This document shows, in pieces, positions 3,523-40,490 of a DNA stretch of 64,000 bases (its first letter is position 1; the number at the start of each line of letters is the position of its first letter). The stretch lies in the NCBI GenBank assembly GCA_965205025.1, contig CBDBFU010000014.1, positions 288,001-352,000 of the forward strand, in the 5' to 3' direction. A program made the position numbers and the translations under genes. The notes below the pieces were generated by a model. The model had not been told where the DNA came from. It worked only from the letters and a program-made list of their open reading frames with translations, and searched no databases. The stretch comes from Candidatus Poribacteria bacterium (lineage in GTDB: Bacteria > Poribacteria > WGA-4E > WGA-3G).

Positions 3523-3586
3523 ACGATCACTGGAAAGCTTATAAACCTCAGCATTCCAGCTATCCTATGGTCATATGATACTATTT
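3523..3586. repeat. 64-bp exact direct repeat, copy 1 (stop codon plus 3' flank)
   Basis: Identical to 29024-29087; weaker similarity extends back to about 3489/28989. Confidence 0.9.
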
Positions 3587-6130
3587 GCGTATAATCATCT
3601 TGCGTGTAGCAATGTATTTACCAGCTATTAATGTGTAGAAGTACACACCACTGGCAACATATTCACCACTTTCATTCTTACCATTCCAATACACCGCGCT
3701 ATTTCGTTGTAGATATGAACCAACTGATTGTTGTCCCATTGCTAATGTTCGTATTAATATCCCATCAGTACTATAGATCTGTATTGTAACATCTGATGGT
3801 TGAGATAGTTGGTACGGTATCCATGTTTCAGGATTGAATGGATTTGGATAATTGGGTAGGAGTGCTGTCTTATTTGGTGTTAACTGAAGTAGAAACTGCT
3901 CCAGATATTGTATTCCTTTTTGAATTATTGGATCTGATAAATTAAGCTGTTGAGCTTGTATCAACCAATCGTGTATATTTTCAGTCTTTAGATTTTTATT
4001 CTTACTATATTTTACAGGGGCATCATTACCTTCATTCAATACTCCTGCAACCTTGATAAGATCAGCAATATCAACAACATCATCTCCATTTACATCTGCT
4101 GCATTTTCACCAGTCTGTCCAAAATTTGCCGCAATAACGACTAAATCTTTAACATCTATAACTCCATCATTATTAACATCTTCTTTAATTCGGGAAGGAG
4201 TGAATAAAGTTGGATAATCCCAAAACAGTATTGTTCCATCTACGCCTAATGTTGCGAGAGTATCCCCATCAGGACTAAACTTTAAATCATCAATTCCATT
4301 CGCCATACCTTTTAAAATAGTTTTTAGATCTCCATTTGATGAATCCCAAAATCGTATTGTTCCATCCTTTCTATCTCCAGCAGAAATGAGAGTTTTCCCA
4401 TCTGGACTGAAAGTAATTTTAACATATCTATATGTATGTCCTGTGTTAATTATCGTTCTTTCTTCAGTATATAAATTCCATATATACAACTGTTGTGATC
4501 CACTGACTGAAGCAATCAATCTTCCGTCTGGACTAAAAACTATATTTGTTCCAATGGCTGACGGGTGTGGTATTTCTGTAATAAGTTCTCTTCTTGAAAA
4601 ATCCCATAATCTAATTGCAGACGAATCCCCTGTAACAAGGATTCTTCCATTAGGACTATACGCGACCTGCTTCGTCTGTGTTATTTCTGTTGGAATAGTC
4701 CATAGTGGTTTATAGGATATTGTATCCCATAGAACAACCGCACCTTTGTTTACAGACGCAGCAACGATTGGTTCGTATGGATGGAATGCAACAGAACTGA
4801 CATTACTTTTATGTCCATATAGTGTTGCTTTCGTTTTTCCAGTTGAGACATCCCATAACCTTATACTGTTTTCATTAGCACTCCATATAGATATAGACAA
4901 GGGATATGTTATAGAACCAGTAGCAATGGTTTCTCCATCAGGACTATAAGATACTGAAGCTAAGAGATCATATTGACCATGACCCGTACTGATGAGTTTT
5001 CCAGATGTAGTATCCAAAAGACGAAGTGTGTTATCTCTGCCAATTGATGCGATTGTTTCTCCATCAGGACTAAAGTCAATTTCAGACCATAAAGCCAGGT
5101 GATTATCTATGGTATTTATCTTCTCAAGTGTTTGAGTATCCCAAAGATGAATATTTCCGTCCCTACTACCACAGACTAATGTCTTTCCATCAGGACTAAA
5201 TGAGACACTTATAACCGACGAAGTATGAGCGATAAGAGTGTTCATGTGACGCATGGTATTCATATCCCATAGACATAAAATTCCATCATCACTAACACTG
5301 GCAAGGATACTACCATCTTTATTGTAATCTATACTATTTACACCCAGCATGTGTCCTAAAAGTGTCTGTATTAATGTACCCGTTTCTACATCCCATAAAT
5401 GTATGGAAGTATCCCATCTACCGGAACAACTTGCAATTGTTTTTCCATCAGGACTAAATGAAATATCCGGTACACCAAATAAGCCAAACTCACTATATGT
5501 AATGATAGTCTTATCGAGTTCACCTGTTGGCAGATTCCATAGCTTAATTGTATTGCGGTCATCATAACCACCTGTAGCGAGGATTTTTCCATCAGGACTG
5601 AATTCAAGACAGGTTGCATCATCTTCATGTCCATCAAGGGTTGTTATAATTCTTCCAGTAGCCACATCCCATAGCTTTACTGATGAATCCTTGTACCAAC
5701 TACATGTTGCGAGGATTTTCCCGTCTGGACTAAACTCCAGATCAGTTATCTCATCTGTGTGGGCAGAGAGAACAGATATGAGTTTCCCCGTAGGTACATC
5801 CCATAATAAGAATTCTCCAGCACTACTACTTGCCAATGTATTACCATCAGGACTGAAGGATACGCTTGTAACACGTCTTGAATGATTTGTAAATAGACTT
5901 TGTTCTTTACCAGTATTTGCGTTATATATCCAAACCCCAATTGAACTTGGTACAGCAACGAGTGAATTGTCGGGTGAAAAGATGATATTTCCAGTAATCT
6001 CTCCTTTTCCAAGACGTTTATATGCACCATTAGGGAGTTCCCACTTTGTGTAATCCTGCGCAAATACGGTTAATGGTAATAGGGATAACAACCAAAGCAA
6101 GACAGAGATGGATAGTAGGATCTTTTTCAT
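3581..6130 (-). CDS. Secreted WD40-repeat protein with dockerin and C-terminal T9SS-type/FlgD-Ig sorting domain (paralogue 1, type A1)
   Basis: Signal peptide, about 14 GH...WD repeats, duplicated DVNxDGVxDxxDL dockerin, NYPNPFNPETWIPYQL...RKMIIRK C-terminus. Confidence 0.93.
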   Translation of the reverse strand: MKKILLSISVLLWLLSLLPLTVFAQDYTKWELPNGAYKRLGKGEITGNIIFSPDNSLVAVPSSIGVWIYNANTGKEQSLFTNHSRRVTSVSFSPDGNTLASSSAGEFLLWDVPTGKLISVLSAHTDEITDLEFSPDGKILATCSWYKDSSVKLWDVATGRIITTLDGHEDDATCLEFSPDGKILATGGYDDRNTIKLWNLPTGELDKTIITYSEFGLFGVPDISFSPDGKTIASCSGRWDTSIHLWDVETGTLIQTLLGHMLGVNSIDYNKDGSILASVSDDGILCLWDMNTMRHMNTLIAHTSSVISVSFSPDGKTLVCGSRDGNIHLWDTQTLEKINTIDNHLALWSEIDFSPDGETIASIGRDNTLRLLDTTSGKLISTGHGQYDLLASVSYSPDGETIATGSITYPLSISIWSANENSIRLWDVSTGKTKATLYGHKSNVSSVAFHPYEPIVAASVNKGAVVLWDTISYKPLWTIPTEITQTKQVAYSPNGRILVTGDSSAIRLWDFSRRELITEIPHPSAIGTNIVFSPDGRLIASVSGSQQLYIWNLYTEERTIINTGHTYRYVKITFSPDGKTLISAGDRKDGTIRFWDSSNGDLKTILKGMANGIDDLKFSPDGDTLATLGVDGTILFWDYPTLFTPSRIKEDVNNDGVIDVKDLVVIAANFGQTGENAADVNGDDVVDIADLIKVAGVLNEGNDAPVKYSKNKNLKTENIHDWLIQAQQLNLSDPIIQKGIQYLEQFLLQLTPNKTALLPNYPNPFNPETWIPYQLSQPSDVTIQIYSTDGILIRTLAMGQQSVGSYLQRNSAVYWNGKNESGEYVASGVYFYTLIAGKYIATRKMIIRK

Positions 6131-6140
6131 TTTTGTTCTC

Positions 6141-8654
6141 CTATTTCCTAATTAGTAATCGTCTGGTAGCATTAAACTGTCCTGAAGAGAGGGAATAAAA
6201 ATAACTGCCACTTGCTACATGTTCACCATGTTCATTTTTCCCATCCCAATGGGCTGCACGGGTTCGGGAGTGATAGATTCCAGCTTGTTGTCGGCCAACT
6301 TTTATTGTCCGAACTAACTCACCGTTAGCAGTATAAATGCGAATTGATACATCTGAAGGTGTATTAAGTTGATACGGTATCCACGTTTCTGGGTTTGCAG
6401 GATTAGGATAATTTGGTAAAAGCACTGTATCTTCAGGAGTAAAGTGGAATAAGATATTTTCAAGTACAGCAATACCTTTCTGTAATATTGGAGTTTTGTT
6501 AGGAATCATCTGTGATTGGGTTAACCATTGTTGAACCATTGTGGGGTTCAAAATATTTTTTGCATCTATTAATTTTCGTGGGGCACTATTATCATTATCA
6601 AGTGCAGCGGCAACTAATAACAAATCCTCAATATTCACAATTCCATCTTCATTTAAATCAGCACTATTTTCTGTTCCTGTTTTTCCAAATTGTAATGCGA
6701 CATAGATTAAATCTTGTAAGTCCACAGTACCATCATGATTAACATCTTCTAACAAGGTAGCCATTTCTAATTTCGAATCAATTATTGAGGCATAATCCCA
6801 TAGCATCACAGTCCCATCAGGACTGCCAGTAGCAAGTGTCTTTCCATCAGAAGTAAATACTACATCTAATACAACGTAACCATGTCCAATAAGTGTTTTA
6901 ATCATCTCACCAGTAGCCACATCCCATATTCTTACAATAGGATCATCCCATCCACCACAACTTACGAGATATTTCCCATCTTTACTAAATGCTATTTTTC
7001 GAACTTCTTCCCTATGTGCTGAATGAATTACCGTTGAATCCCCACTCGACATATCCCAAAATATTATTGAGTTATCCTTACCACAACTTGCAAGAATACT
7101 TCCATCATCATTAAAATCAACACAATGTACCCTATCAAGATGTCCATATAGGGTAGTAATGTTGGATCCAGTCGAAACATCCCAAATCCGTACTGTTTTG
7201 TCATTGCTACTACTGGCAAGAAGATTTTCATCAGGACTAAATTTAACTGAAGTAACCCCTGCTGTATGACCAATAAAAGCATCAATATGTGTACGACCTG
7301 CATACCATATATGTACAGCAGTATTTAATTCATTGCCCCCGGCAAGGAGTTGACCATCCGAGCTATACTCTAATCCAGACAAAAAAGCACTTGATGTAAG
7401 ATTCTTCCCTCCATTGCCTGTGAGTGTAGCAAGATATGTTAGATGATTAACATCCCAAATAAGTGTTCTACGACCATCTTGACTAGCAAGTATATTTCCA
7501 TCTGGTCTGAATGCTAAACCTATAAAGTAGTTATACCATTCATTGAAATATATCTGTCCTAACCGTTCGGTAGAGGAGGTATTCCACAGATTAATTTGAT
7601 AAGGACTTCCAGTTGCGAGTATGTTTCCATCCGGACTGAATGCTAAGGCTCTAATTTCAGTCGAATGTCCTTGAATTGACAGATTCCGTTCACCAGTATT
7701 CACATCCCAAATGAATAAACCATCTGAACTGCCGCTTGCGAGTGTAGTACCATCAGGACTGAATACTAATGTATACACTTTCTGCTTTTTATGTCCTATA
7801 AAATCTCTGATTCGTTCCCCCGAACCAACTTTCCATAGATCTAATTTTCCATATCTATCACCAATAGCAATGGTATTTCCGTCAGGACTAAAGGCAATTC
7901 CATGGATTGTTTGTTTTAATTGAATTGTATGATATCTATCTGTTATCACATCTGAAATATTCACTTTTTTCTGGTTCACACTTATACTTGCTACTTTACT
8001 TCCGTCTGGACTAAAGATGATTTTCGATATACTACTTCTATGGTTAGTTAGATATTTCTTCTGTGTAGCAGTCGTAAGATCCCATAACCGTACGGTATCA
8101 TACCAATTTCCACTAATAAGTGAGTTCCCATCAGGACTGAAAGCAAGTGAATTAACCCTACCTGTATGACCAGTCAGTATAGAAATTTTTTCACCTGAAG
8201 CAATATCCCATAGGACTATCGCTTTGCCTATTCCTGCAGCAAAGGTATATCCATCAGGACTGCTTGCAACTGTTCGTCTAACTCCTGTATCTCCTTCGAT
8301 CTCTGCAATTAAACTTCCATCATAGATTGATCTGATTTGGTAGATATCTTCAGTTTCAACACATACGTACATTTCCCCATCGGGACTAACACTAAGTAAG
8401 TCTTTACCATAGGTCGAAATAAAACCTAATTCAACACCAGTCTGTGCATCATAAGTCCAAATACCATTATAGCATTGAACAATTAACCTACTTCCATCAG
8501 GTGAATATGCCAGACTCCTAACAATTCCTTTACCAATCCGTAATTTTGCCCCATCAGGTAAATCCCATTTCATGTATTGATTCGCATAGGAAAATGGAAG
8601 AAAATGTAAAGAAATATATAGACATACAAGCATAATCTGTTTGATAGTTTTCAT
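6141..8654 (-). CDS. Secreted WD40-dockerin-CTD protein (paralogue 2, type B1)
   Basis: Same architecture; type-B marks GRTH and DLIYVALQFG. Confidence 0.93.
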   Translation of the reverse strand: MKTIKQIMLVCLYISLHFLPFSYANQYMKWDLPDGAKLRIGKGIVRSLAYSPDGSRLIVQCYNGIWTYDAQTGVELGFISTYGKDLLSVSPDGEMYVCVETEDIYQIRSIYDGSLIAEIEGDTGVRRTVASSPDGYTFAAGIGKAIVLWDIASGEKISILTGHTGRVNSLAFSPDGNSLISGNWYDTVRLWDLTTATQKKYLTNHRSSISKIIFSPDGSKVASISVNQKKVNISDVITDRYHTIQLKQTIHGIAFSPDGNTIAIGDRYGKLDLWKVGSGERIRDFIGHKKQKVYTLVFSPDGTTLASGSSDGLFIWDVNTGERNLSIQGHSTEIRALAFSPDGNILATGSPYQINLWNTSSTERLGQIYFNEWYNYFIGLAFRPDGNILASQDGRRTLIWDVNHLTYLATLTGNGGKNLTSSAFLSGLEYSSDGQLLAGGNELNTAVHIWYAGRTHIDAFIGHTAGVTSVKFSPDENLLASSSNDKTVRIWDVSTGSNITTLYGHLDRVHCVDFNDDGSILASCGKDNSIIFWDMSSGDSTVIHSAHREEVRKIAFSKDGKYLVSCGGWDDPIVRIWDVATGEMIKTLIGHGYVVLDVVFTSDGKTLATGSPDGTVMLWDYASIIDSKLEMATLLEDVNHDGTVDLQDLIYVALQFGKTGTENSADLNEDGIVNIEDLLLVAAALDNDNSAPRKLIDAKNILNPTMVQQWLTQSQMIPNKTPILQKGIAVLENILFHFTPEDTVLLPNYPNPANPETWIPYQLNTPSDVSIRIYTANGELVRTIKVGRQQAGIYHSRTRAAHWDGKNEHGEHVASGSYFYSLSSGQFNATRRLLIRK

Positions 8655-8662
8655 AATAATTT

Positions 8663-11164
8663 CTACTTCCGGATTACCATTTGTCGTGTGGCAACAAACT
8701 GTCCTGCTGTAAATTCATAGAAGTATACTCCACTCGCTACATGTTCACCATATTCATTTTTCCCATCCCAATAGGCAGCGCGGGAACGAGATTGGTATAG
8801 TCCTGGTTGTTGATATCCTATTTGTAATTGTCGAATCAATTGACCATTTGTTGAATAAATTCGGATTGTTACATCTGATGGTTCGGATAGTTGATACGGA
8901 ATCCACGTTTCAGGATTGAATGGATTCGGATAATTTGGAAATGCAACGGTTTTTTCAGGATACTTACTATTCAGAAGTTGTTCAAGAAAATATATCCCTC
9001 TTTTTGAAACTGGATCAGTAAGATTATGTATCTGTGCCTGTTTCAACCACTCCTTGATAGTACTTGCTTTTAGAATATCTTTATAGGGTGTTTTTGTTGG
9101 AGATGCAGATTCCAGATTAATTGCTGCGGCTACCATGATAAGATCCGTAATATCAACAACACCATCACCATTTATATCAGCTGCATTTGGACCAGTTTTA
9201 TTAAAGTTTGTAGCAACTACAATCAAATCCTTAATGTCAACAACGCCATCCCCATTTACATCAGTTGTTAATGAGATGGGTTGAATTATATCATCAAAAT
9301 CCCATATATAGATTACTCCTCCCTCACCGGCAGTTGCGACTGTGCTCCCATCTTTACTGATCCTAATTTGACCAAAACCATCCGGAATCCCAGAAAATTG
9401 ATGTATTATTTCGGCAGTTCCAGGTTCCCAAAATGATATAGTACCACCATCAGAATTGGTCATACTAATTAGGAACTTTCCATTAGGACTATATGTAATT
9501 CCACTGACACCGACATCTGTCTGGGTAAGTTCTCTCTTAAGCGTTCCCGTTTCCACATCCCATAAATTCACAATTCGTGATGCAAATACGGCTGCAAGAG
9601 TGTTCCCATTCGGACTGAAGGTCAAGGATCTAATCCAAGTATAACCTACCCCGAAGTTTCTTACTTGTTTTCTCTTTGATAAATCCCATAGTAATATGTC
9701 CTGCCCTCCAGATGCCAACATTTGACCATCTTGACTAAAAGCTAAACTAAGTGGAGCCTGTGTAGGTCCAGTAAAGGTGGCAATGTGATGTCCAGTCTGT
9801 GAATCCCATAGACACACATTCTTATCTCTACCTCCTGTGGCAAGCATTTTTCCATCTGGACTGAATCTTACAACATATATATTCCCATTATGTCCCATTA
9901 GCATCAGTTTAGTTTTTCCAGTTACAGCATCCCATAATCGGACTGACCTGTCATAATAATTCCCACTACTCGCTATAGTTTTACCATCTGGACTTATATC
10001 AATTGATTCAATGTAAGATGTATGACCGATTAGAGTGTTTATCTTTTTTCCAGTTGCTGTTTTCCAAAGGTATAGTTTATTGTCCCAACTACCACTAACT
10101 ATCATATCCCCGTTAGGACTTATAGCAAAACTGTCGCCAGCAGTATGGTGACCTAAAATCTGAGTAATGGTTTCTAAAGTCTCAGCATTTCTGATCTGTA
10201 TAGTTCCATCAAAGCTACTACTTACTAAAAGGTTGCCATCTGGACTATAGAGTACATTTTGTACTCTGTATGTATGATCAAGGAGAGTAGTTTTATAGGT
10301 GGCAGTAGATACATCCCACAAAACAACCGTACCATCATCGCCTCCACTGGCAAGAGTATTTCCATCTGAACTAAATGATACACTGTTGACTTTTCTTGTA
10401 TGTCCAGAAAGCGTGTTTATCAGTTCTCCAGTGTCTGTATTCCATAGGTGAATTGAGGTATCTGACCAATCACTGCCTCCGGCGAGTATACTCCCATCAG
10501 GACTAAATGCTAAACTCTGGACACCATCTTCATGACCAATGATGAATTTCTTTAATCTGAGTGTTTCAACATCCCACAATATCACCTCATTTTCATATTC
10601 TGTACAACTTGCAAGAGTTTTACCATCAGGACTAAATATCACATCTGATACATTATCTGAATGATCAGTGAAGATTGCCAACATGACACCACTATTCACA
10701 TCCCATAATATCACAGATTCGTCTGTCCCTCCTCCACAACTTGCAAGTATATTACCATCAGGACTAAAGGCGACACCAAGGATTTCATCGTGATGTCCCA
10801 TAAATCTTTTGATGACTTTTCCTGTAGAAACATTCCAGAGTAATAATTTTCCTTCACGACTCCCACTTGCAAGTATCTTTCCATCCGGACTGTAAGCCAC
10901 ACTTGCAACACCTTCTTGATGTCCTAAGAACAAATCGAGTTCTTTTCCTGAAAATACATCATAAATCCATGTCCCAATTGGCGTTGTAACCACAAGTCTC
11001 TTGCTATCAGGAGAAAATGCAATTTCTCCATCTAACATACCTTTACCAATTCTTAATTTTGCGCGTTCCGGTAAATTCCATCTCATATACTCTTGTGCAA
11101 ATAATGTGATGGGTAAATTAATTATAAGAAGTAGTATGAGGGTAAAATATCGTGTTTTCTTCAT
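8663..11164 (-). CDS. Secreted WD40-dockerin-CTD protein (paralogue 3, type A2)
   Basis: Same architecture; dockerin DLIVVATNF. Confidence 0.93.
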   Translation of the reverse strand: MKKTRYFTLILLLIINLPITLFAQEYMRWNLPERAKLRIGKGMLDGEIAFSPDSKRLVVTTPIGTWIYDVFSGKELDLFLGHQEGVASVAYSPDGKILASGSREGKLLLWNVSTGKVIKRFMGHHDEILGVAFSPDGNILASCGGGTDESVILWDVNSGVMLAIFTDHSDNVSDVIFSPDGKTLASCTEYENEVILWDVETLRLKKFIIGHEDGVQSLAFSPDGSILAGGSDWSDTSIHLWNTDTGELINTLSGHTRKVNSVSFSSDGNTLASGGDDGTVVLWDVSTATYKTTLLDHTYRVQNVLYSPDGNLLVSSSFDGTIQIRNAETLETITQILGHHTAGDSFAISPNGDMIVSGSWDNKLYLWKTATGKKINTLIGHTSYIESIDISPDGKTIASSGNYYDRSVRLWDAVTGKTKLMLMGHNGNIYVVRFSPDGKMLATGGRDKNVCLWDSQTGHHIATFTGPTQAPLSLAFSQDGQMLASGGQDILLWDLSKRKQVRNFGVGYTWIRSLTFSPNGNTLAAVFASRIVNLWDVETGTLKRELTQTDVGVSGITYSPNGKFLISMTNSDGGTISFWEPGTAEIIHQFSGIPDGFGQIRISKDGSTVATAGEGGVIYIWDFDDIIQPISLTTDVNGDGVVDIKDLIVVATNFNKTGPNAADINGDGVVDITDLIMVAAAINLESASPTKTPYKDILKASTIKEWLKQAQIHNLTDPVSKRGIYFLEQLLNSKYPEKTVAFPNYPNPFNPETWIPYQLSEPSDVTIRIYSTNGQLIRQLQIGYQQPGLYQSRSRAAYWDGKNEYGEHVASGVYFYEFTAGQFVATRQMVIRK

Positions 11165-27500: not shown

Positions 27501-28319
27501 GTTCACGACCCTCAATATCTCTCGAAGGAACGCTGTAGTTCCCCAACATCCTCCGGTATAATGTGAAAAATGTTCTGCATTCCAAAAGTCAGAATAAAAC
27601 GTTGTCCCAGATACGACACGTGAGACAGGTGTTGCACCACGGTACTGCCAATGGTCTTCGACATTTTTTGCCGTAAACCCACCGGTAAAGTGTTTCATGT
27701 TATAACGACACCAAGTAAGGAGATTCCCTATTGTCCGCAACCTATCCTGGGCAATCATATCGTTATCACTCAGAAACTGAAATGAGAAATCAGGTGGTGC
27801 AGGCATTCCAGAGTAAATTACTTGGTACCCTTCCAAATCATGCCTTCTCCTAAACATTTTACTTCCATCAAGTAATTCCAACAGTTCCTCCTGAGAATAC
27901 GCGGTTAATGACCAGGACACCCACTCTCCAGTCTCAACAGCAAGACTGAATGCGATATGTGCCAAAAACAGAGGCCATGCGTGATCCTTTGATAGCACCG
28001 TCGAGGAGTAGTCATCATCTGCAAGGTCAAGCATATTAGGTGGAGGATCGGTTAACTCAAGGGATTCTCCTCTCCAAACTTTTTGATACATCTCAAGTAA
28101 ATCTGCTTTTTGAGTAGCAGACCAATCACGGTACTCCTTGATTCCATTTGCATCTTCCCACCTGATGGTTTGGGATATAAGAGGATGGTCAGTTAGCCAA
28201 GCCCCAATATCTGGCTCATCGGTTTCTGCGGTTGCTACCAATGGAATCGAAAGGAAGGTCAATCCACATAAAACAATAAAAAGTAATAGCATCTTGCTCA
28301 AAATATAGTTTGTCTTCAT
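24546..28319 (-). CDS. Secreted protein: transglutaminase/papain-like N-terminal domain, three LDL-receptor class B (YWTD) beta-propellers and CTD
   Basis: Signal peptide; GGCWGTT...VNIPV...GHA...HGDD; many K(V/I)YWTE/YVTN repeats in three blocks each starting P.MYW; same CTD; no dockerin. Confidence 0.88.
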   Translation of the reverse strand: MKTNYILSKMLLLFIVLCGLTFLSIPLVATAETDEPDIGAWLTDHPLISQTIRWEDANGIKEYRDWSATQKADLLEMYQKVWRGESLELTDPPPNMLDLADDDYSSTVLSKDHAWPLFLAHIAFSLAVETGEWVSWSLTAYSQEELLELLDGSKMFRRRHDLEGYQVIYSGMPAPPDFSFQFLSDNDMIAQDRLRTIGNLLTWCRYNMKHFTGGFTAKNVEDHWQYRGATPVSRVVSGTTFYSDFWNAEHFSHYTGGCWGTTAFLREILRVVNIPVKNAPGGGHALPYFISEGKYLSHGDDPYTWSIRSSAIPIEELFIDQATYDAWFGSSVPWEKQKQNVGRRSNELEIKHLHPEMYWVNTEEGTLYRLIGATPIPFVPSVLNATSLAIDVADGKVYWTEKTGSRTGRIRRANFDGTNIEEVKSLTSVPLGIAIDTSYDKIYVTNSSGKIQCLNIDGSNFEPNLIAALESPDNLAIHAGKVYWTEAAGHIRRANLNGKNIETVVSTTESVGDFTFWGRYLFWTEQVDENSGRIKRAYLNGDNIQTIVTSMSVLHSIGVDNMHYDFNGHKVLIYWTNSRGKIQRSDTNGKNVRNIIKGLTAPKDLALVYIPRPVLPESFRPPMYWINTQMGTLHQLAGSVIERFVPSAQNVTSLTVDMTGGKVYWTEKTGNNVGKVRRANFDGSKIEDVKSLEGVPRSIAIDASNSRIYVTNSLGKIQWMSFDGSNFQSDLITGLKSPMHIALDVSKGIVYWTEDRRIQRANMDGSNIQTLATDLRAIGGIALAEDKLYWTEWGKDSIKRSSLNGKKVESIGSFIQSPIGIAVDTTENKVYWTNEIGEIRRGYLPITRGNPKQRYIPLSSTRTLVTGLLAPGSLALGGDMPSTPVPEFQYPAMYWTDKANGTLHRFNGVAVENLLPNVQNATGVAMDVAGGKIYWTEKTSQKTGKIQRANLNGSNVELVRSIKRPQRGIAIDTTHDKLYTINSWGKIQRLNFDGSNFENNFITGLNSPKNIVLDVDGGKLYWTEKTSNGTGKIQRANLNGSNVELVKSLSRVPRGIAIDSANRKLYLTNSSGKVQRLNFDGSNFETDFIIGLESPEGIAVDVNSGKIYWTETGSINCASLNGENIQNIVMGLSAPANIVLGTVQTHTSIVTAPAVLVEHIDETHLHPNYPNPFNPETWIPYQLARPTKVTLSIYSVNGSLVRTLSFGHQPAGIYHDKSRAAYWDGKNTLGEPVASGVYFYTLTAGDFTSTRKMLILK

Positions 28320-29023: not shown

Positions 29024-29087
29024 ACGATCACTGGAAAGCTTATAAACCTCAGCATTCCAGCTATCCTATGGTCATATGATACTATTT
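29024..29087. repeat. 64-bp exact direct repeat, copy 2
   Basis: Identical to 3523-3586. Confidence 0.9.
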
Positions 29088-31555: not shown

Positions 31556-32169
31556 CTATCTGTCATGAGGAAAACTTGCTGAATATTGGACTTATGTGAA
31601 ACAATATTGTACAATAAGTTACTTAGTACAAGTCGTTTTTATATCATCCTTTTTCTGTAGGGGTTTTGCGTCTCCTCGCAGGACGATAGTGAACGTGGCA
31701 GACATTTCTCAAATGCCCCTGCCGAGTAAGGTCTTATGATTCTACTTCCGTATCAACATCTTACGCGTAGCAGTGAAATCTCCCGCGCTGAATTTGACAA
31801 AATAGACCCCTGCCGCCACCTTCTCACCAAGATTATTCTTACCATCCCAATACGCCGCACGGATCCGACTATGATACATACCCGCAGCCCGATACCCTAA
31901 CGCCAACCGACGCACGACTATACCTCTTACATCATAGATTGTCAATGTAACATCAGCAGGTTTAGATAACTGATATGGTATCCACGTCTCTGGGTTGAAC
32001 GGGTTCGGGTAGTTCGCTAAAAGTGCTGTTGACATAGGAACAGCGGTGTGTGAAGGAGCACCTGGTGGAATGGTAATGTCAAGACTTAAACTTCCACCAG
32101 CTGCCTCAATTGCTGCTTTGAGTCTACGGAGTGGTCCGTAATCTGTAATCGAATTTCCAGAGATGTATA

Positions 32170-32850
32170 GGGTTGTTAGCGAAGTTAAATCTTCAAGCGC
32201 ACTGACATCACTGATGGAATTGCCACCCAGATCGAGATATGTCAACGAAGTCAACTTAGAAAGTGTAGATATATCACTGATGGAATTGCTATTCAGATAG
32301 AGCCATGTCAACGATGTCAACCCTGAAAGTGCTGATATATCACTGATGGAAGTGCTATTCAGATAGAGCGTTGTCAACGAAGTCAACCCAGAAACCGCTG
32401 ATATATCACTGATGGAATTGCCACCCAGATCGAGACGTGTCAACGATGTCAACCCTGAAAGTGCGGATATATCACTGATGGAATTGCCACCCAGACCGAG
32501 CCATGTCAACGAAGTCAACCCAGAAACCACTGATATATCACTGATTTGAATAGCATCCAGATCGAGTTCTGTCAGATGAGTCAACCCAGAAAGCGCTGAT
32601 ATATCGCTGATGGAATTGCTATTCAGAGCGAGCGTTGTCAGATGAGTCAACCCTGAAAGTGCTGATATATCACTGATGGAATTGTGATTCAGAGCGAGCC
32701 ATGTCAGATGAGTCAACCCTGAAAGTGCTGATATATCACTGATGGAATTGCCACCCAGATCGAGATGTGTCAACGAAGTCAACCCAGAAAGCGCTGATAT
32801 ATCGCTGATGGAATTGCTATTCAGAGCGAGCGTTGTCAGTTGTGTCGCAT
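32170..32850 (-). repeat. 66-bp near-identical coding tandem repeats (22-aa LRR), about 10 units
   Basis: Recurring GATATATC(A/G)CTGATGGAATTG...GTCAACCC at 66-nt period. Confidence 0.9.
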
Positions 32851-33325
32851 ATTCTAATCCTGATATGTTGCTTATCGCAGAATAACCAGCAGATAGTCCT
32901 GTTAATTCTTGCAGTGTCTGCTGTGTGAGAGCATCACCTGCTTGCAGCCCAAGAGCTTTTCGCACCGCAGCGCGTAACTCCGCATCCGGCATCCACTCCT
33001 CCGCGCTATCGGCAATCGACGCAGCTCCAATGTCAACATCTATGCTTATTTCATGGGTAGTCTTTGCTTGTAGACTATGGAGCGGTGCATAATCTGTGAT
33101 CTGATTTCCTGCAAGACTTAATGATATGAGGGCTGTCAAACCTTCAAGTGAACTGACATCGTTGATGGAATTATAACTTAGACTAAGTCCTGTCAGCGAA
33201 GTCAACCCTGAAAGTGCTGATATATCACTGATGGAATTGTTTCGCAGATAGAGTTCTGTCAGATTGGTTAATCCAGAAAGCGCAGATATATCACTTATGT
33301 TATTAACATATAGATATAAATACTG

Positions 33326-34415
33326 CAGGACTTACGCAAAATTACAAAATGTGTTATTCTTATTGATTATGAACACATTTACACATTCTAAAAAGAAGCA
33401 AGACTTATTTTCCGATTATTGTCAATATTTGTTTTCAAGTTTCACTAATTTTACACAAACTTATTTTGCTAAACATACAGACCGTTGGAGCCACGATCAA
33501 CTCAATCGCTTTCTGAGAGACGAAAACATTCCTACAAGTGAACTCTGGGCATCCGTCAAAGACGACATCGACTTTGATGAAGAAGGATACCTGATTTTTG
33601 ATGATGTTGTGCTGTCAAAAATACATTCTAAACGGATTGAAATAGTACGCTCTCAATGGAGTGGTAGTGACAGAAAGGTGATTCAAGGTATCGGTATTGT
33701 CACCTGTCTCTATGTCAACCCTAAGACACAGGAATATTGGGTCATTGATTACCGTATTTTTGACAGAGATCATGACGGTAAAACCAAAATCGATCATTTA
33801 TTGGATATGTTGCACGATGCTTATTCTAAGAAACAACTCCCATTCCGGACAGTCTTGATGGACTCTTGGTATGCGTCCATGAAAGTGATGAAAGCGATTG
33901 ATAGACTTTCTAAGATCTATTATGTTCCGTTGAAACGAAACCGTCTTGTGAATGATACCAAAGGTGTAGAACCTCACAAGGCAGTCAAAGATCTATCTTG
34001 GTCTCAAGCAGAAAAGAAAAGCGGTAAACGCGTACATCTCAAAAACTTTCCGAAAGGTTCTGTCGTAAAGTTATTCCGGTTTGTGTCTGATACCGGACGC
34101 ACGGAATATATAGTGACAAACGATTTGACACAATCAAATGTGGATATGACTCACCAAAAGTGTCGTCTCCGTTGGAAGATTGAACTCCTTCATCGTGAGA
34201 TGAAACAAGTAACCGGTATTGGTAAATGCCAATGTCGTAAGATGCGTGCCCAGAGAAATCATATTGCGTGTAGTTTCCAAGTATGGGTCTTTATGACGCG
34301 TGTTGTACGTGCTGTTGGACAAAAGATTTACAAGTTTAAAGATGGTTTATTGAGTGATTACTTAAAACATCAACTCTCAAATCCTTCAATAAAATTTAAA
34401 ACTGCGTAAGTCCTG
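33326..34415 (+). mobile_element. IS701-family insertion sequence, 1090 bp
   Basis: Perfect 13-bp TIRs CAGGACTTACGCA / TGCGTAAGTCCTG; 5-bp TSD TACTG at 33321-33325 and 34416-34420. Confidence 0.93.
33369..34409 (+). CDS. IS701-family DDE transposase
   Basis: SHDQLNRFL, LIFDD, VLMDSWYA, RWKIELLHREMKQVTG, CQCRKMRAQRNH; first ATG inside the IS is at 33369; stop lies in the right TIR. Confidence 0.92.
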   Translation: MNTFTHSKKKQDLFSDYCQYLFSSFTNFTQTYFAKHTDRWSHDQLNRFLRDENIPTSELWASVKDDIDFDEEGYLIFDDVVLSKIHSKRIEIVRSQWSGSDRKVIQGIGIVTCLYVNPKTQEYWVIDYRIFDRDHDGKTKIDHLLDMLHDAYSKKQLPFRTVLMDSWYASMKVMKAIDRLSKIYYVPLKRNRLVNDTKGVEPHKAVKDLSWSQAEKKSGKRVHLKNFPKGSVVKLFRFVSDTGRTEYIVTNDLTQSNVDMTHQKCRLRWKIELLHREMKQVTGIGKCQCRKMRAQRNHIACSFQVWVFMTRVVRAVGQKIYKFKDGLLSDYLKHQLSNPSIKFKTA

Positions 34416-37400
34416 TACTGTAAAGATGTCAAACTACCGAGCGCGCTAACATCACTGATGTTATTGTTAGCGAGATCTAAACTGGTTAAATTCGTAAAAT
34501 CTTTCAGTGGAGTGATATCACCACCGAATTGAATACTATCTATAAATAAACCAGTAAGTTTTAGTAAACTTTGTAGAGGTAAGATGTCGTCGATTGGATT
34601 GATACCAGCAGATAAATTCTCTAGTGATGTCAACCCCGCAAGTGGTTGGATGTTACTGATATTATTGCCATCGATAGATAACTGACGGAGTTTCGTTAAA
34701 TCTTTCAGAGGTGTGATATCACTGATGGAATTGTTCCCCAGATCTAGCGATGTCAGTTGTGTCGCATATTCTAATCCTGATATATCACGTATTGCAGAAT
34801 CTCTGGCAGATAGTTCTGTTAATCCTTTCAGTGCCTGCTGTGTCAGCTTTTCACCTTCCTGCAATCCGAGTACGGCGCGCACCTTAGTGCGTAAATTGGC
34901 ATCCGGCATCCAATCCAACCCGGAAAAGGCGGCATTAACAGAAATAGAGATGGTCTGCGTAGCAGTAAACTCGCCATCGCTGGCTGTTATTGTAATTGTT
35001 GCACTCCCTATTCCTATTGGCGTGATTGTAATTTGAGAACCAACCGCATTCACAGTCGCAACACTATTATTATCGGAACTTGTTGAATATGTGAGTGTAT
35101 TTTCATCAGGGTCCTGAAAGTTGTCGGAAACATCTAAAACTACGGCAGAATCCCCAACTGTTAGCGTCCGAGCAGAAATCGTACCCACTGTCACAGGTGC
35201 ACGATTCGCAATAGATGCATCGGTGATTGTAATGTAAACAGTCTGCGTAGCATAGAACTCCCCATCACTTGCTTCAATGGTAATGGTTGTAGTTCCATGA
35301 CTTATAGGGGTAATTTCGAGTTGAGAACCGAAAATGCTTGCGGTTGCGATGCTCCTATTATTAGAATATGCGGTGTATGTGAGCGTGTCATTCTCCGGAT
35401 CCGTGAAGTTGCCAGAAACATCTATTTGAACAGATGCATCCCCAATTCTCAGTGTATGATCAGAAATGGTGCCGACTGCGATAGGTGCTTGATTCAATGA
35501 CCCTACAGAAACAGAAATAGTCTGTGTAGCAGTAAACTCACCATCGCTGGCTGTCACGGTTATTGTTGTCTCTCCTTCACTCACAGGGGTGATGGTGACC
35601 TGTGAACCAGACACACTTGCGTCTGCCACACTGCTGTTACTGGAGCTGGTTGAATATGTGAGCGTATCTCCATCGGGGTCCTGAAAGTTGCTCGAAACAT
35701 CTAAAACCGAGGCAGAATCCCCAACTGTAAACGCCTGTTGAAAGATCGTCCCAACTGCTACCGGTGCACGATTCCGCTTTACCACAGAAACTGAAACAGT
35801 CTGCATTGCGGTCAACTCGCCATCACTGGCTGTCACGGTAATTGTTGCGATCCCTTCACTCACAGGCGTGATTCTGACCTGAGAACCCGACACAGTCACA
35901 GTTGCGATATGTCCATTATTTGAAGTTGCAGTATACGTCAGAGCGTCGTTATCCGGATCACGAAAGTTGCTGGAAACATCTATCTGAAGAGGGGAATCAC
36001 CAATGTTCAATGTCTGTGCAGAAATGCTTCCCACTGCTACCGGCGCGTAATTAGGACGCACAGTAATAGCAGCCGCTGCGGAGCAATTATTGTTACTATT
36101 ACTCTCATTTGTCACCCTTGATACACATGCCCCATAATAATAAACACCCGGTTCAGTCGGTGCTGTCAGTCTGATAGATTCATTGTCTGTCTCATTTGTA
36201 TCTAAACTTGACACAAAGTCATCGCCAACTTTTTTGTCACTGCTTGATATGCGGGCATCAGACGAAAGGTAATACGTTAGCCTTGTAGAAGATGTCGGTT
36301 CCCCTAATCCTTGATTACGGACAGTGGTACGTAGCGTAAATTCTTGACCGGGGTCAAGGGTCGGGCTGCTCACAGAAATAGATTCAACGAGATAGTCAGG
36401 AGAACCGGTAACCTCTACACGTTCTTCATCGGCAAGGTTGTTTCTTAGTGCGTGTTCATCCAAGTGATCCGTATTATCAGTGTTATGAATATTAGATCGC
36501 AACAGTGCACCATAATAATACCGATCAGGGGTCGTAGGTGCATCCACAGAAAGTGTTAACGTTGTGCTTCTACGTTCTTGGAGCGATGGCACGCGTAGTG
36601 ACCCAGCACTTCGTAAACCCCTTTCTACAGCTAACTCCTCAAGATTATCGTTACGACTGCCCGAATGATAATAAAAATAGACATTTGTTGCAGCGGACTC
36701 ACCGGGACCATTGTTGCGGATTTCAACTTCTAACTCAAATTCTTGTCCGAGGTTTACCTCATCGTCACTCACATCAAAGTCCCGAATTTTTAGGTCTGGC
36801 GGTTGGCGGAACAATAGTTGATCACCACCGACTGCTTCTGCACTCCATCCTTCTATATTTGCACGATCCCAGTCTATTTTCCACCATGTGAATCCATTCG
36901 CACTTCTGGGACCATCCTCAATAATCCCGGTAGCACCGTTACCCACAAGGTCTATTATGGCGTTGTTAGTTCCGGGACCACTTCTTACTCTAAGCGTATT
37001 TCCTTGAGCAAGTCCATCAACAATAACAGAAACACCTTCTCTCAATCCTTCAGCGCGAGGGTTGCTGCGATCAGGGACATTGAAGGTTGGATCCGTGTTC
37101 GTAGGAGGACGGACAATAACCGCACTGGTTTGGCTTACTACCACAGATATAGTCTGTATAGCAGTTAAATCCGTGTTCACCGTATCGCGTGCTGTAACTA
37201 CCACTGTTACAACCCCTCCTGATACAGGTGTAATCGTGACTCGTGAACCGGAAACAGATGTTTTTACAATGCCACTTGGATTTGATGCTGCTTCATAGGT
37301 AAGGTTATTTGAAGAAGAGAAATATTGTGAAACGTCCACTGTTGTAGCAGAACCGTCTTCTGTCAAAGTTTTAGACGGAATCGTACCTACAGCTCTCGGT

Positions 37401-39110
37401 GGGTTCGTTACGATCAACTGAGCGGACACAGTGACGTTGAAAGTTTGCGTAGCAGTGAGTTGACTATCGCTTGCTGTTACAGTAACTTGCGCGCTACCTT
37501 CACCCGTCGGTGAAATACTTATACTTGCAGTTCCTGTTCTCTGTGCACTCACAACGTTCGCATCGCTGGAGGTTACGGTGTATGTAAGCGCGTCACCATC
37601 TGGGTCACGAAAATAACCTGATACATCAATCGTTGTAGAAGAATCACCCATCCGCAGCGTTTGGGTAGAAATTGAATTAATAAGTCCAGGTGCTTGATTC
37701 GCCACGGGTGTAGGTGAAGTCTCTACGACAACAGAAAAAGTTTGCGCAACTGAATATTCTCCATCGCTTGCTGTTACGGTAAATGTTGCAGAACCTGCTT
37801 TTTTTGGGATGATTGCTAATCTATAATCTGATTCTTGCCATGGGCTCACTGGTAGGATCTCTATACGATTACTTGATGTCTTGTGCAACTGCAAATCTAT
37901 CACACCAGAATTCTGTCCAATCTCCACATTGTAGGTGAGTATATCGTCGTTTGGATCGCTAAAGTACTCAGACATATCCAGCGCATGGGCAAGATTCCCT
38001 ACTGTCATAGTGGGGAGTCGGATTGGTGCCTTGTTCTTTTTCAGAGTTGGTGCACGGTTTCCCTGAACAACAAAAATGTTCCATGTAAATTCCGCCCTTC
38101 CTCCCGCTTTGGTTTCGATTGTAGCAGTTACGGTTTTTTTACCACCTATGTCCCAACTGTACTTTGTAGAATGTGTGCGTGAGGGATTTAATAACGAAGC
38201 TCCCCAACCTTTTCGGTCTGCATCTGTACCATGAGAGTTAAATTCAATGTAGCGAATTTTATCATCGCTTTTTGCTGTGATCTTGAATGTCGTATCAACT
38301 CCTTCCTGAGTTTGCCATGTCTCCACAGAATTTAAAACTAAATAGTCCGCACCTGAAAGAATATCTGTCCCTTCGCTTTCCTTGACGTATTTAAGATTCG
38401 GAACTACTTTTGTTATTTCCGGTGGGGGTATAGCTACATTCACTGTCCAAGTCAAAGTGGCTGGAGCATATTGCTGATTTTTGGAGTGAACGGTAGCAGT
38501 TACTATGTAACTTCCAACTGTATTCCATGTATACTTAACTTTATGCACATGACTGGCACAAAAAGTAGCACACGTGTCTTCTTCTTTCCCATCTACTTGC
38601 GGATATTCTTCTTCAGTAATCGGATTTAAATCATCAACTGAAGAAACAGAAAATACGATTTTATCAATAGGATTTGCAATCCCAGACCCTTCCCCTTTAA
38701 CTTTAAATTCCGTTTTTTTACCCAGTTTTAATTGAACCGAAGTATTCGTTGGTTTTACTCTTTCGATTGTCACTGCACTGCCAGTCTTCGGCAAAATGAG
38801 AATTAACAATAGAAGGCTTAATACACCAATAATATTTTTGACATTTACTTTCCAATTTTTTGATAAATGATAAAAAGACATAGATATTCTCCTTATTTAT
38901 ACTTATGCAGCATATATTTTAGATCAGCTGATTTCAATACGTTAACATCTGTATACGATAACCAAAACTAAATCGTTCTGGTCAACATCATTTTCTATAG
39001 ACAAGGCTTATGTAAATTTAGCGCGCAGATCAAGATTTTTGACTTCACCCTCAATCTCCGCATATTATCAAAAGAATTACCTGTTGTTGGATATAAGAGT
39101 GGTGTTCTAT

Positions 39111-40490
39111 TTATTTCGGAATAACGAAAGCAAAGCGACCTTCATGGTCCATATCCATAAGATCGGATGCATCAAACAGTCTGTTCGGATTTTCCTCATC
39201 TACGACATTAGCGGTACCATTTGCAATCAACCATAGACCGATACCGGTATCAGGGTGTGGGAATATATCATCCCGCACGACACTGAAAATCTTCGGAAGA
39301 CCCTCACGCGTAAGAGTAAACGGTTCACTCATCACGAAAAATTCTCCCAGACGTTCTCCAGTACTCCAGTCCGGTTGATTGAGAAATTGAAGACGCAGCT
39401 GCACAGCAGTCTCAACAGGACAAGCTTCAAGTCCCATCCCTTTTGCGCGTTGATAAATGGTATCAAGCGTAGCAAGCTCACCCTCAGCAAACCCCAACTC
39501 CAGCATAGAAACAACAACTATATCGACCGTTATTCCCTCTGCCATCACCGGAAAATCCGGATGTTCAAGGGCTTGCCTGGACCATAGACTGACCAAGCAT
39601 TTTTCTTCGATCAGTGCTTCTAAAAGATCAACACCAGTCCTATGGGTTCCGAGTGTTACGGTAAAATCAGCTTCAAAACTCACTTCATCTTTTGTATCTT
39701 CACTATTATTTACAAAGTTATTACTGTCCTGTTTTTGCATATTTGCAAGGTATTGAGTACTAACACTGTAAATCACCAGGATTGATAAAACCAAAACAGT
39801 TGCAATCCCTATCCACGGCAAGAACCGATCCCATTTCGAAGAGGGTGTAGGTTTCAGGTCAACAATTCTTCGCATGATGTTCTGCTTGATACTTGATGAT
39901 ATCTGCACGGCACCAAGAACTTCTTGAACCAAGAGTTCCTCTTCTTCACGTAATCGCTTACGAGCACGGGACATACGCGTTCTAATCGTTTCCACTGAAG
40001 TTCCTAAGAATTTACCTATCTCATTCGTAGTCAATTCACCAAGATAATAGAGCGTCATCACTGTCCGCTCACCCTCCGGCAATTTTTCCAACAGTTTATT
40101 CACGATCTCAAAACGATGTTCAGTTGCTTCTGTTTCTCGTTGCTCCGATACATACCGTGCATAATCAGATTTCACTACTTCTTCCATCGGTGTATCCTCC
40201 AATGATTGTAATTGTTTCGCATGTTTTTGTTTACGCAACCAATTTAGACAAAGTCGATTTGCAATAACATACAACCAGTTAAGAAATTGGTCTTTATTTT
40301 TTAAGGTAGAAAGTTTCTGATATGCGCGGAGGAAAGTATCCTGTGTAATTTCTTCTGCGTAGTGAAAATCACCGATTTTCCGCCACGCAATGGCGTGAAT
40401 ACTTTTTTGGTATTTTTCAACTAAAATGGCGAATGCTGAGTCGTCACCTGATAAGACATCATGAATCAATTGAACATCGTCTCTTTCCAT
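39111..40490 (-). CDS. ECF sigma-70 factor with a TM helix and a C-terminal extracytoplasmic domain
   Basis: Sigma region 2 (AEEITQDTFLRAY, WLYVIANRLCLNWLRK), region 4 (LPEGER...TIRTRMSRARKRL), TM segment FLPWIGIATVLVLSILVIY, then about 190 aa more. Confidence 0.9.
   Translation of the reverse strand: MERDDVQLIHDVLSGDDSAFAILVEKYQKSIHAIAWRKIGDFHYAEEITQDTFLRAYQKLSTLKNKDQFLNWLYVIANRLCLNWLRKQKHAKQLQSLEDTPMEEVVKSDYARYVSEQRETEATEHRFEIVNKLLEKLPEGERTVMTLYYLGELTTNEIGKFLGTSVETIRTRMSRARKRLREEEELLVQEVLGAVQISSSIKQNIMRRIVDLKPTPSSKWDRFLPWIGIATVLVLSILVIYSVSTQYLANMQKQDSNNFVNNSEDTKDEVSFEADFTVTLGTHRTGVDLLEALIEEKCLVSLWSRQALEHPDFPVMAEGITVDIVVVSMLELGFAEGELATLDTIYQRAKGMGLEACPVETAVQLRLQFLNQPDWSTGERLGEFFVMSEPFTLTREGLPKIFSVVRDDIFPHPDTGIGLWLIANGTANVVDEENPNRLFDASDLMDMDHEGRFAFVIPK

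Follow-up and report, generated by a model that had tools for sequence, protein, structure and literature searches.

On balance, we think that the eight WD40 genes in the window (the whole stretch of 64,000 nucleotides analysed here) form a single block of cargo within a kit found across the Poribacteria. Members of this kit probably leave the cell through a type IX-like system and are then likely docked onto exported cohesins, which would give rise to branched chains at the cell surface. The bacterium, a member of the Poribacteria of the sponge-symbiont type, would in this way use cellulosome-style display for binding proteins, not for cellulases.

The WD40 array

Between positions 3581 and 33205, eleven ORFs on the minus strand share a C-terminal domain (CTD) of about 98 amino acids. 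They encode eight WD40 proteins, a YWTD/LDL-receptor-B protein of 1257 aa, an M23 protein of 645 aa and an LRR protein of 487 aa. A dockerin was identified in nine of the eleven, the YWTD and LRR proteins being without one, and a signal-like N-terminus in ten, as in type A cargo of the T9SS, which combines a signal peptide with an Ig-like sorting domain at the C-terminus. TIGR04183 matched above cut-off in both of the CTD-bearing window proteins that were scanned, and the modelled CTD resembles the CTD of PorU from P. gingivalis (6za2 residues 1054-1157; Z 10.3, rmsd 2.7, 91 aligned).

The WD40 proteins w1 to w8 (n = 8, 831-849 aa, all on the minus strand) have hydrophobic, signal-like N-termini and belong to two subfamilies, A and B. 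The subfamily-A protein w1 (3581..6130, dockerin 4025-4195) consists of a signal peptide, a double WD40 region, a dockerin, an Ala-Pro (AP) motif, a helical hairpin and the CTD. The same architecture was observed in w3 (8663..11164, dockerin 9107-9277), w5 (13753..16293, dockerin 14197-14367) and w7 (18811..21342, dockerin 19258-19428) of subfamily A, and in w2 (6141..8654, dockerin 6588-6761), w4 (11226..13742, dockerin 11673-11846) and w6 (16305..18800, dockerin 16749-16922) of subfamily B. The first gene of the array is w8 (21417..23963, dockerin 21864-22037), also of subfamily B. PF00400 scores range from 230 to 356 bits, and all eight proteins have a PF00404 match above cut-off. Since each head contains 11-15 repeat marks at a spacing of about 42 aa over some 600 aa, the pattern fits two propellers per head, for which about 14 WD repeats are expected, and agrees with the preliminary description of eight double WD40 proteins with a dockerin.

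The intergenic gaps within the block are only 8-74 bp. A promoter scan of positions 2200-22000 yielded 76 sites against 82 expected and 14 terminators against 9.3 +/- 3.7 expected, and neither count is informative. The window is not unique, its array being the largest among the 18 arrays examined.

The neighboring genes

The YWTD protein (24546..28319, minus strand) consists of a signal peptide, a domain of about 350 aa without family, YWTD propellers, an AP motif and the CTD, with neither dockerin nor hairpin. The M23 protein (29082..31019, minus strand) has the order signal peptide, SH3-like region, M23, cohesin, a 6-aa linker, dockerin, AP, hairpin and CTD. Its Pfam matches to M23 (PF01551, E 7e-11), cohesin (PF00963, E 4e-10) and dockerin (E 2e-11) agree with the earlier domain assignment, whereas the SH3 region has no Pfam match of its own; this call derives from a 44-aa alignment (45% identity, E 4e-10) with part of the nearby Ig-LRR gene, which itself matches SH3_3 below cut-off (E 0.003). 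The zinc motifs of M23 peptidases (HxxxD, HxH) are present in the translation as HSGWD and HVH. The only cohesin in the window (29697..30107, minus strand), with a nine-stranded cohesin fold, was assigned to class alpha of the two classes, alpha and beta, which were defined by alignment and a motif rule that misplaces some members.

The Ig-LRR gene has been interrupted by an insertion sequence. The 3' fragment (31742..33205, minus strand) encodes LRR, AP and CTD with no signal peptide and no dockerin, and the 5' part (34370..38881, minus strand) a signal peptide, Big_9/cadherin-like Ig repeats, an SH3-like region, CARDB and LRR with the CTD absent. Between them lies a DDE transposase element on the plus strand (33326..34415) of 1090 bp with 13-bp terminal inverted repeats and a 5-bp flanking duplication, TACTG, of which there are 10 near-identical full copies genome-wide. 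The two fragments are thus one Ig/SH3/CARDB/LRR gene, and because 31742..33205 is its signal-less half, the eleven co-oriented secreted proteins previously listed come down to ten intact candidates. The minus-strand gene at 39111..40490 lies within the coordinates first given for the system but encodes an ECF sigma factor, which contains a transmembrane-like stretch and a C-terminal domain without family; it has no CTD and was excluded.

Gaps of 582-762 bp lie between the YWTD, M23 and Ig-LRR genes, which are therefore probably not part of the WD40-block operon. Over long stretches of the YWTD and M23 genes, contigs from run X3 give little cover or none, an observation that carries no evidential weight.

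Evolution of the array

The WD40 heads are arranged as B-A pairs, strictly so in 17 of 18 arrays, and the eight proteins in the window represent four such fixed pairs. A and B are two old subfamilies. Orthologues have been kept at 71-86% identity, which does not agree with the suggestion that the heads are interchangeable. A recent tandem expansion was also considered and rejected, the heads being 32-54% identical to each other. The dockerin is retained in all 36 subfamily-A proteins, and 4 of 35 subfamily-B proteins have lost the dockerin and the hairpin while retaining the CTD.

In 11 of 17 relatives, a gene for a WD40-cohesin-dockerin-CTD protein, here called the leader, is located directly upstream of the array. 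Its orthologue in our genome is represented by two ORFs, split within the cohesin at the end of contig C17, which may be a real split or an assembly error. The cohesin of the M23 protein falls into the same class as that of the leader. A full-length SH3-M23-cohesin gene was identified in 2 of 40 relatives; the M23 protein of G010 is on a different contig from the array, and none was found in G004 or G018, two genomes that have the full set of eight WD40 genes in common with ours. The M23 protein was therefore rejected as a conserved hub, and the proposal that it is the docking partner engaging peptidoglycan is not supported.

Cohesin, dockerin and hairpin domains

Modelling confirmed the cohesin and dockerin folds. 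The window cohesin scores 40.4 bits to PF00963 (cut-off 24.1), and the list of structures similar to its model is headed by 20 cohesin entries, including the non-cellulosomal cohesin of A. fulgidus (2xdh; Z 17.4, rmsd 2.8, 130 aligned). PF00404 matches nine dockerins in the window above cut-off. In a model of the dockerin and hairpin of w5 (14047-14367), the dockerin superimposes on the NagH dockerin of C. perfringens (2ozn_B; Z 9.2, rmsd 1.7, 55 aligned), followed by other solved dockerins at Z 5-6.3, and its helices at residues 15-23 and 43-52 have a pLDDT of 89-94. In sequence-profile searches, type II cohesins lead the matches, as does 2y3n, the dockerin of B. cellulosolvens.

Residues D1, D5 and D12 of both 12-residue Ca loops are conserved in 100% of 145 tails. 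The recognition residues of dockerins we take to be positions 10, 11, 17/18 and 20-22. Among 59 WD40 dockerins, F20 and G21 of repeat 1 are kept in 90% and 97%, and I10 of repeat 2 in 90%, whereas positions 10 and 11 of repeat 1 are variable, with the commonest residue reaching 37% and 47%. These dockerins thus have one conserved and one variable face, unlike the symmetric dockerins of 20 CTD-less proteins.

The hairpin was found in 34 of 34 ORFs with dockerin and CTD, from which the hairpin model was itself seeded, but in none of 16 CTD-only and none of 15 dockerin-only ORFs; in relatives, it is present in 108 of 110. A structure search with the hairpin alone returned just generic helical pairs (Z 5.6 or less). 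AlphaFold2 folded the cohesin-dockerin-hairpin-CTD tail (pLDDT 86, pTM 0.57) with no contacts or confident domain packing, and likewise found no confident packing for dockerin-hairpin (pLDDT 79, pTM 0.50, linker pLDDT < 50); these models speak neither for nor against cis occupancy or a capping role of the hairpin. Mutual information over the 145 tails (Neff 92) was noise, with no usable contacts.

The genome-wide kit and the export machinery

Models for cohesin (PF00963), dockerin (PF00404), WD40 (PF00400) and TIGR04183, to which the preliminary description had pointed, all matched, and the genome-wide count of cohesins also suggested there gives 18 full cohesins in 15 ORFs, next to 49 dockerin ORFs. 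Thirteen cohesins directly precede their own dockerin and five have no following dockerin, so that the ratio of dockerins to free cohesins is about 10:1; 35 of the 49 dockerin ORFs have no cohesin. PF00963 is present in 41 of 41 genomes. The cohesin-dockerin-hairpin-CTD cassette is shared as a unit by many passengers at about 50-60% identity.

One free carrier (G000:C20:76901) has the order cohesin, acidic linker, Spondin, Ig and CTD, with no dockerin. It is conserved in 22 of 24 congeners at 68-88% identity, with a cohesin lacking a dockerin at 21 of these 22 loci. The strand region presumed from solved cohesins to be the binding face varies, by eye, among its orthologues. A multi-cohesin scaffoldin outside the window (G000:C20:313620) combines three cohesins with a dockerin and a CTD; the highest number per protein is three here and four in G002. 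A tandem-cohesin scaffoldin was matched in 13 of the 24 congeners searched and not found in several array carriers.

Yet another category is represented by the 15 of 49 dockerin ORFs from which the CTD is absent. Their dockerin repeats are symmetric (I10-L11/F20-G21), and they include solute-binding proteins, a thioredoxin, a copper monooxygenase and a B12-capture-like propeller. CTD-less cohesin-dockerin proteins are also present. Several heads of dockerin ORFs match no family. As previously stated, no glycoside hydrolase was seen on any dockerin protein examined: Pfam identified no glycoside hydrolase catalytic family on the 46 of 49 ORFs scanned (among the best 25 families for the WD40 proteins), and reading by eye revealed no glycoside hydrolase on the remaining three.

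A SprA-like gene of about 2150 aa was identified in 40 of 41 genomes, with matches below the family cut-off. PorV has seven matches above cut-off, and three PorU-like C25 peptidases contain GHG...C at scores below the family cut-offs. The PorZ model gave weak partial matches only, and the GldM and GldN models matched neither this genome nor the controls.

Discussion

We hypothesize that kit members carry a portable tail at the C-terminus, ([cohesin]-)dockerin-AP-hairpin-CTD, and would be exported by Sec through their signal peptides. By analogy with the Bacteroidota T9SS, which we assume to apply, a SprA-like translocon and PorV would then recognise the CTD, and one of the three PorU-like peptidases would remove it. 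The conserved Ala-Pro right after the dockerin is a candidate processing site. With both 12-residue loops intact, the dockerin would bind Ca2+, and because one face is conserved and the other variable, it may dock in one orientation only. As sockets we favour the genus-wide dockerin-free carrier for the base and proteins with cohesin-dockerin tails, such as the WD40 leader and the M23 protein, as putative chain extenders, the heads being displayed as stable B-A pairs, probably with distinct ligands, for which sponge matrix, cells or particles are conceivable. Chains are likelier than a hub because 13 of 18 cohesins adjoin their own dockerin. Cohesin-dockerin binding, its Ca2+ dependence, a surface location and host interaction are all predictions.

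With the same arrangement of cohesins, however, a large share of the sockets may be occupied in cis or through self-oligomerisation, and since a CTD is present on every WD40 protein, anchoring is possible without docking. Docked chains are also disfavoured by the excess of dockerins over free cohesins, the loss of the dockerin in some B proteins, the variable positions 10 and 11 of repeat 1, the variation of the presumed binding face in the free carrier, the split leader of this genome, the failure to find the tandem-cohesin scaffoldin in several array carriers and the SprA and PorU scores below cut-off. It is possible, if not what we expect, that there is no assembly in trans, that single proteins are anchored by the CTD with dockerin, hairpin and cohesin as a Ca2+-stabilised or cis-satisfied stalk, with the WD40 dockerins in part left over from an ancestral cohesin-dockerin tail. 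The cassette that travels as a unit, the loss of dockerin and hairpin in 4 of 35 B proteins and the lower symmetry of the WD40 dockerins relative to CTD-less ones all agree with such a stalk. However, 22 of 24 congeners retain a dockerin-free carrier, most dockerin ORFs (35 of 49) lack a cohesin, and the dockerin and one conserved face are kept in all 36 A proteins. The 6-aa linker is also probably too short for cis binding, going by cohesin-dockerin geometry. The preliminary description instead placed interchangeable WD40 heads on the SH3-M23-cohesin protein at the peptidoglycan, forming a combinatorial complex. That protein does carry the window's only cohesin, which shares its class with the leader cohesin, is co-oriented 5 kb upstream and has intact M23 motifs, but it is full-length in 2 of 40 relatives, off-contig in G010 and not found in G004 or G018. 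Furthermore, one cohesin offers one slot, the CTD would direct the protein outwards and not to the peptidoglycan of the bacterium itself, and the heads have been preserved as orthologous pairs in a set order, which makes this arrangement very improbable. The folds, the genome- and order-wide stock of cohesins and dockerins, the dockerin-free and multi-cohesin carriers, the lack of glycoside hydrolases on the dockerin proteins examined and the export and sortase-like genes speak for a cohesin-dockerin display in general; the M23 partner and the interchangeable heads are not supported.

Docking could also be mainly periplasmic, with CTD-less proteins organised in the envelope or ferried out on CTD carriers while the hairpin shuts CTD-tagged dockerins in transit. 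The 15 CTD-less dockerin ORFs with symmetric repeats, the CTD-less cohesin-dockerin proteins and the distribution of the hairpin (34/34, its own seed set, 0/16, 0/15 and 108/110 in relatives) point in this direction, whereas the unconfident dockerin-hairpin packing (pTM 0.50, linker pLDDT < 50) and the noise from the covariation analysis do not, and we find it improbable. It is compatible with our preferred explanation of docked surface chains and differs in where docking occurs. A more elaborate, rather improbable variant is a two-compartment plug-and-socket system with a divergent type IX pathway. The AP-hairpin would be a removable pro-piece that shuts CTD-tagged dockerins in the periplasm and is cut on export; cohesin-dockerin tail proteins would then polymerise on the surface, forming a mesh that extends itself and bears B-A WD40 pairs as obligate heterodimers, and CTD-less dockerin proteins (solute-binding, B12-capture propeller) would exit on free cohesins of CTD carriers.

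The best structural matches, the NagJ cohesin-NagH dockerin pair of C. perfringens and the A. fulgidus cohesin, are non-cellulosomal. Binding is shown by the solved 2ozn complex, but the C. perfringens system has glycoside hydrolase passengers and neither CTD nor hairpin. A helical FIVAR module precedes, rather than follows, the NagH dockerin. The closest sequence matches are canonical cellulosomes and adaptor scaffoldins (A. cellulolyticus ScaB, B. cellulosolvens 2y3n), and the cohesin and dockerin on one chain resemble monovalent adaptor scaffoldins. Here, however, no cellulases or CBMs were found, there are at most three cohesins per protein, and anchoring is probably by CTD/sortase and not by SLH or LPXTG.

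Likewise, the accessible passages on ANME archaea (PMC9012536) describe non-cellulolytic proteins with dockerins on NikA/OppA-type binding proteins (here SBP_bac_5) and scaffoldin-like proteins with a dockerin and up to five cohesins, pairs untested experimentally; they also state that archaeal cohesin-dockerin binding has been verified. Unlike the kit described here, that system is archaeal and S-layer anchored, with no T9SS-type CTD or WD40 array described in those passages. Ca. Stygibacter of the Cloacimonadota, in the part of PMC8542988 available, is also diderm and uncultured and has a tandem-cohesin scaffoldin-like protein with a CTD in an inferred complex; its single scaffoldin of 3755 aa has CBMs, GH18, GH57 and peptidases, whereas we observe many small carriers and mostly non-catalytic heads. 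For Chlorobium chlorochromatii, the available text proposes from a model only that Cag_2037/Cag_2038 tether a symbiosis protein to a Gram-negative surface by cohesin-dockerin (bioRxiv 10.64898/2026.03.19.712371), but with one pair, T1SS-type export and alginate lyase cargo.

By titles and the beginnings of abstracts, no paper addresses this poribacterial system; Kamke 2013, Podell 2019 (ISME J), Peer 2009 and bioRxiv supplements may mention cohesins or dockerins. Poribacterial WD40 and LRR proteins with a Por-type CTD (TIGR04183) are reported in the accessible parts of Kamke et al. 2014 (PMC3909097). The domain fusions were, as the preliminary description had it, already known: supplement file 8 mentions dockerin 21 times and cohesin 28 times and lists one WD40+cohesin+TIGR04183 gene. 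The main text, as far as available, lacks both words, proposes no assembly and reports that Por structural genes were not found, whereas SprA-like, PorV and PorU-like genes were identified here; the hairpin, AP motif, B-A pairing, leader and free carrier do not occur in the available passages.

Those parts of Kamke et al. 2014 gave no answer to how the many eukaryote-like repeat proteins of Poribacteria get to the cell surface and remain there. With candidates now named for the export machine, the processing site and the sockets, and with a small set of domains of 50-140 aa suited to production in E. coli and to pairwise tests, this question can be tested without culture. If our hypothesis is true, cohesin-dockerin assembly, known from enzyme complexes, would in an uncultured symbiont lineage serve to display binding proteins.

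Results

The region at 3581-40490 had been described as 11 co-oriented secreted proteins sharing one C-terminal domain. Eleven minus-strand ORFs do end in a ~98-aa domain of the PorU-CTD fold (CTD), although one of them, an LRR ORF, corresponds to the 3' half of a gene that an insertion sequence (IS) has interrupted. The IS at 33326-34415 has 10 near-identical full copies across the genome and is young and active. All eight WD40 genes (w1-w8, 3581-23963), spaced 8-74 bp apart, encode a dockerin, as had been proposed. In the neighbour thought to join SH3, M23, cohesin and dockerin (29082..31019, minus strand), the latter three domains were recovered in a 645-aa protein, while support for the SH3-like stretch is indirect. 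The last ORF included in the original cluster (39111-40490) encodes instead an ECF sigma factor, in which a hydrophobic stretch joins sigma to a ~200-aa C-terminal domain without a Pfam family. The YWTD protein (24546-28319) has no dockerin; its N-terminal domain (residues ~30-350), also without a Pfam family, contains a GGCWG...GGGH stretch suggestive of a transglutaminase-like Cys-His site. Short intergenic repeats at ~31120-31200 and 40700-41650 recur dozens of times across the genome, show very high contig depth and are REP/MITE-like, and at 57747-59597 a Tsp45I-type restriction enzyme is encoded as two ORFs (128 and 129 aa) adjoining an intact DNA methylase.

With profiles built from the genome under study (G000), in which the window spans C14:288001-352000, 58 ORFs with a CTD were identified, 50 in the main class, and 49 with a dockerin, 34 of which have both domains. 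Between dockerin and CTD stand an Ala-Pro (AP) motif and a two-helix hairpin. The hairpin model matched all 34 of these ORFs, by which it was itself seeded, none of the 16 CTD-only or 15 dockerin-only ORFs of G000, and 108 of 110 dockerin-CTD ORFs from relatives. The motif [ASTG][APS]P lies ~57 aa upstream of NYPNP in 30 of the 34 dockerin proteins; among CTD-only proteins this distance is ~120 aa in eight with an Ig spacer and ~17 aa in four, and the motif was not found in the remaining four. The proline is conserved in 99% of 145 tails, and we infer that the AP motif is a candidate processing site. All parts of the tail fold in AlphaFold2 models, and a structure search confirmed the cohesin, dockerin and PorU-type CTD folds; no confident packing between the parts was seen in these models (pTM 0.57 and 0.50). 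The ESM Atlas clusters nearest to the tail are mostly from Poribacteria, and at 3 of 6 loci the named relatives of a G000 protein are Candidatus Poribacteria. A further tag, short and with the pattern V[ESDQ]P..K..[TS]WG.[ILV]K, marks the C-terminus of 60 ORFs genome-wide (e.g., G000:C12:234113-235810); it replaces the CTD in the cohesin carriers of families f3 and f4 and occurs together with it in a few proteins.

Dockerins in G000 are carried by WD40, LRR, Ig, cadherin, YWTD and VWA proteins, solute-binding proteins, thioredoxin, copper monooxygenase-like proteins and a few peptidases. Those lacking a CTD include ABC solute-binding (SBP_bac_5, Peripla_BP_6), thioredoxin and copper monooxygenase-like proteins (G000:C15:464594, C31:62675, C10:67176, C15:412176, C26:128145, C11:106465 and C15:160765). 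The proposed lack of glycoside hydrolases is supported, in that no catalytic family of these enzymes was seen on the dockerin proteins of G000 examined; a GH67 N-terminal domain is found on one CTD protein without a dockerin.

Cohesin matches (PF00963) were obtained in all 41 genomes searched across the order, with 2-30 per genome, and G000 has 18 full cohesins over 15 ORFs. In relatives, the heads fused to the cohesin-dockerin-hairpin-CTD cassette include WD40, LRR and trypsin-like ones. A tandem-cohesin scaffoldin, which in G000 has three cohesins (C20:313620) and adjoins LRR-cohesin-dockerin genes, is present in 13 of 24 congeners. A dockerin-free cohesin-Spondin-Ig-CTD protein (G000:C20:76901) has counterparts of 68-88% identity in 22 of 24 congeners. 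The central strands of its free cohesin differ among these loci (L125-L147), with four or more sequence variants, the rest of the protein being 68-88% identical; these variants are possible species-specific docking codes. Another free cohesin carrier of G000 lies at C28:157491. Six congeners (L057-L062) have a conserved ~451-aa protein with a signal peptide, a repeated helical domain of no family, a cohesin and a C-terminal dockerin but no CTD; it was not among the cohesin matches of G000.

The w5 gene was matched in 19 of 24 congeners (E <= 1e-90), and arrays were compared in the 17 with full-length matches plus G000, some loci being incomplete because of contig ends or the limits of the stretch examined. 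A tree of 82 heads gave three groups: B (35 heads; w2, w4, w6, w8; support 1.0), A (36; w1, w3, w5, w7; 0.41) and leader (11; 1.0). Mean identity is ~49% inside A or B and 34% between them. B and A alternate strictly in 17 of 18 arrays, G000 included, with two, four, six or eight genes; the G004 array has one additional B-like ORF without a tail. Either a partnership between B and A or simply the unit of duplication could account for this pairing. The dockerin is kept in 36 of 36 A proteins and lost jointly with the hairpin in 4 of 35 B proteins. All eight genes occur in unchanged order in G004 and G018 (71-86% identity).

The gene upstream of the array in 11 of 17 relatives is a WD40-cohesin-dockerin-CTD leader. 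Its G000 orthologue (G000:C17:10347-12795, L124; 89% identity to the G018 leader) is broken into two ORFs inside the cohesin, by a real split or an assembly error, and its 5' end lies past the contig edge. In G018 (L107, G018:C31:94001-114000) the eight-gene array is ~6 kb from an SprA-like gene, whereas G000:C17 bears the leader and the 3' end of SprA with no array between them, which suggests that the array moved in G000.

Candidate export genes were found in G000: three C25 peptidases of PorU-like architecture with GHG...C (PorU scores under cut-off), seven PorV matches above cut-off and, at the edge of C17, only the 3' end of an SprA-like gene. An SprA-like gene of ~2150 aa is present in 40 of 41 genomes, with SprA scores under cut-off. 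The models used for motor and ring components (GldM and GldN) had no match in G000 and also matched no control.

Discussion

Our preferred reading, which we consider slightly more likely than not, is that these proteins would be exported by a divergent T9SS, processed near the putative AP site and docked in trans, in a putatively Ca2+-dependent manner, onto cohesins that are free or would extend a chain, so that a branched display results. Five of the 18 cohesins in G000 are free, 10 are followed directly by their own dockerin and three more are once an insertion is allowed. Single anchoring of each protein, with dockerins that act in cis or are relics, is a distinctly less probable explanation. 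The two repeats of solved dockerins have antiparallel geometry. In the WD40 dockerins (n = 59), F20/G21 are kept in repeat 1, where positions 10/11 vary, and I10 (with A11 in 69%) is kept in repeat 2, from which F20 is absent; the repeats of CTD-less dockerins (n = 20) are symmetric. One conserved and one variable face, in such a geometry, would thus fit a single binding mode better than a dead domain.

That docking is mainly periplasmic, or serves piggy-back export, appears unlikely. We give least credence to a reading in which the M23 protein is a hub for the interchangeable heads of the preliminary description; among the best 150 of 1220 matches by score, its SH3-M23 version of the cassette was full-length in two of 40 relatives, G010 and G024. 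Trans docking after T9SS-type export remains our favored model.

The individual domain fusions were, as supposed, already known in Poribacteria, being listed in the supplements of PMC3909097 (12 files searched). That study places the phylum, rather than G000 itself, in sponges, and reports that the CTD but no Por structural genes were found in Poribacteria (Kamke 2014, PMC3909097); the candidate export genes found here extend beyond that account. Non-cellulolytic kits with scaffoldin-like proteins, and dockerins on similar solute-binding, thioredoxin and copper monooxygenase-like cargo, have been described in ANME (PMC9012536), a CTD-bearing scaffoldin in Cloacimonadota (PMC8542988) and, in rumen bacteria, dockerins that serve functions unrelated to carbohydrates (PMC6487960). 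A non-exhaustive search of titles and abstract openings found no paper on poribacterial cohesin-dockerin assembly. By membership, the system is not a cellulosome; if binding holds, it would work like cellulosome-type docking.
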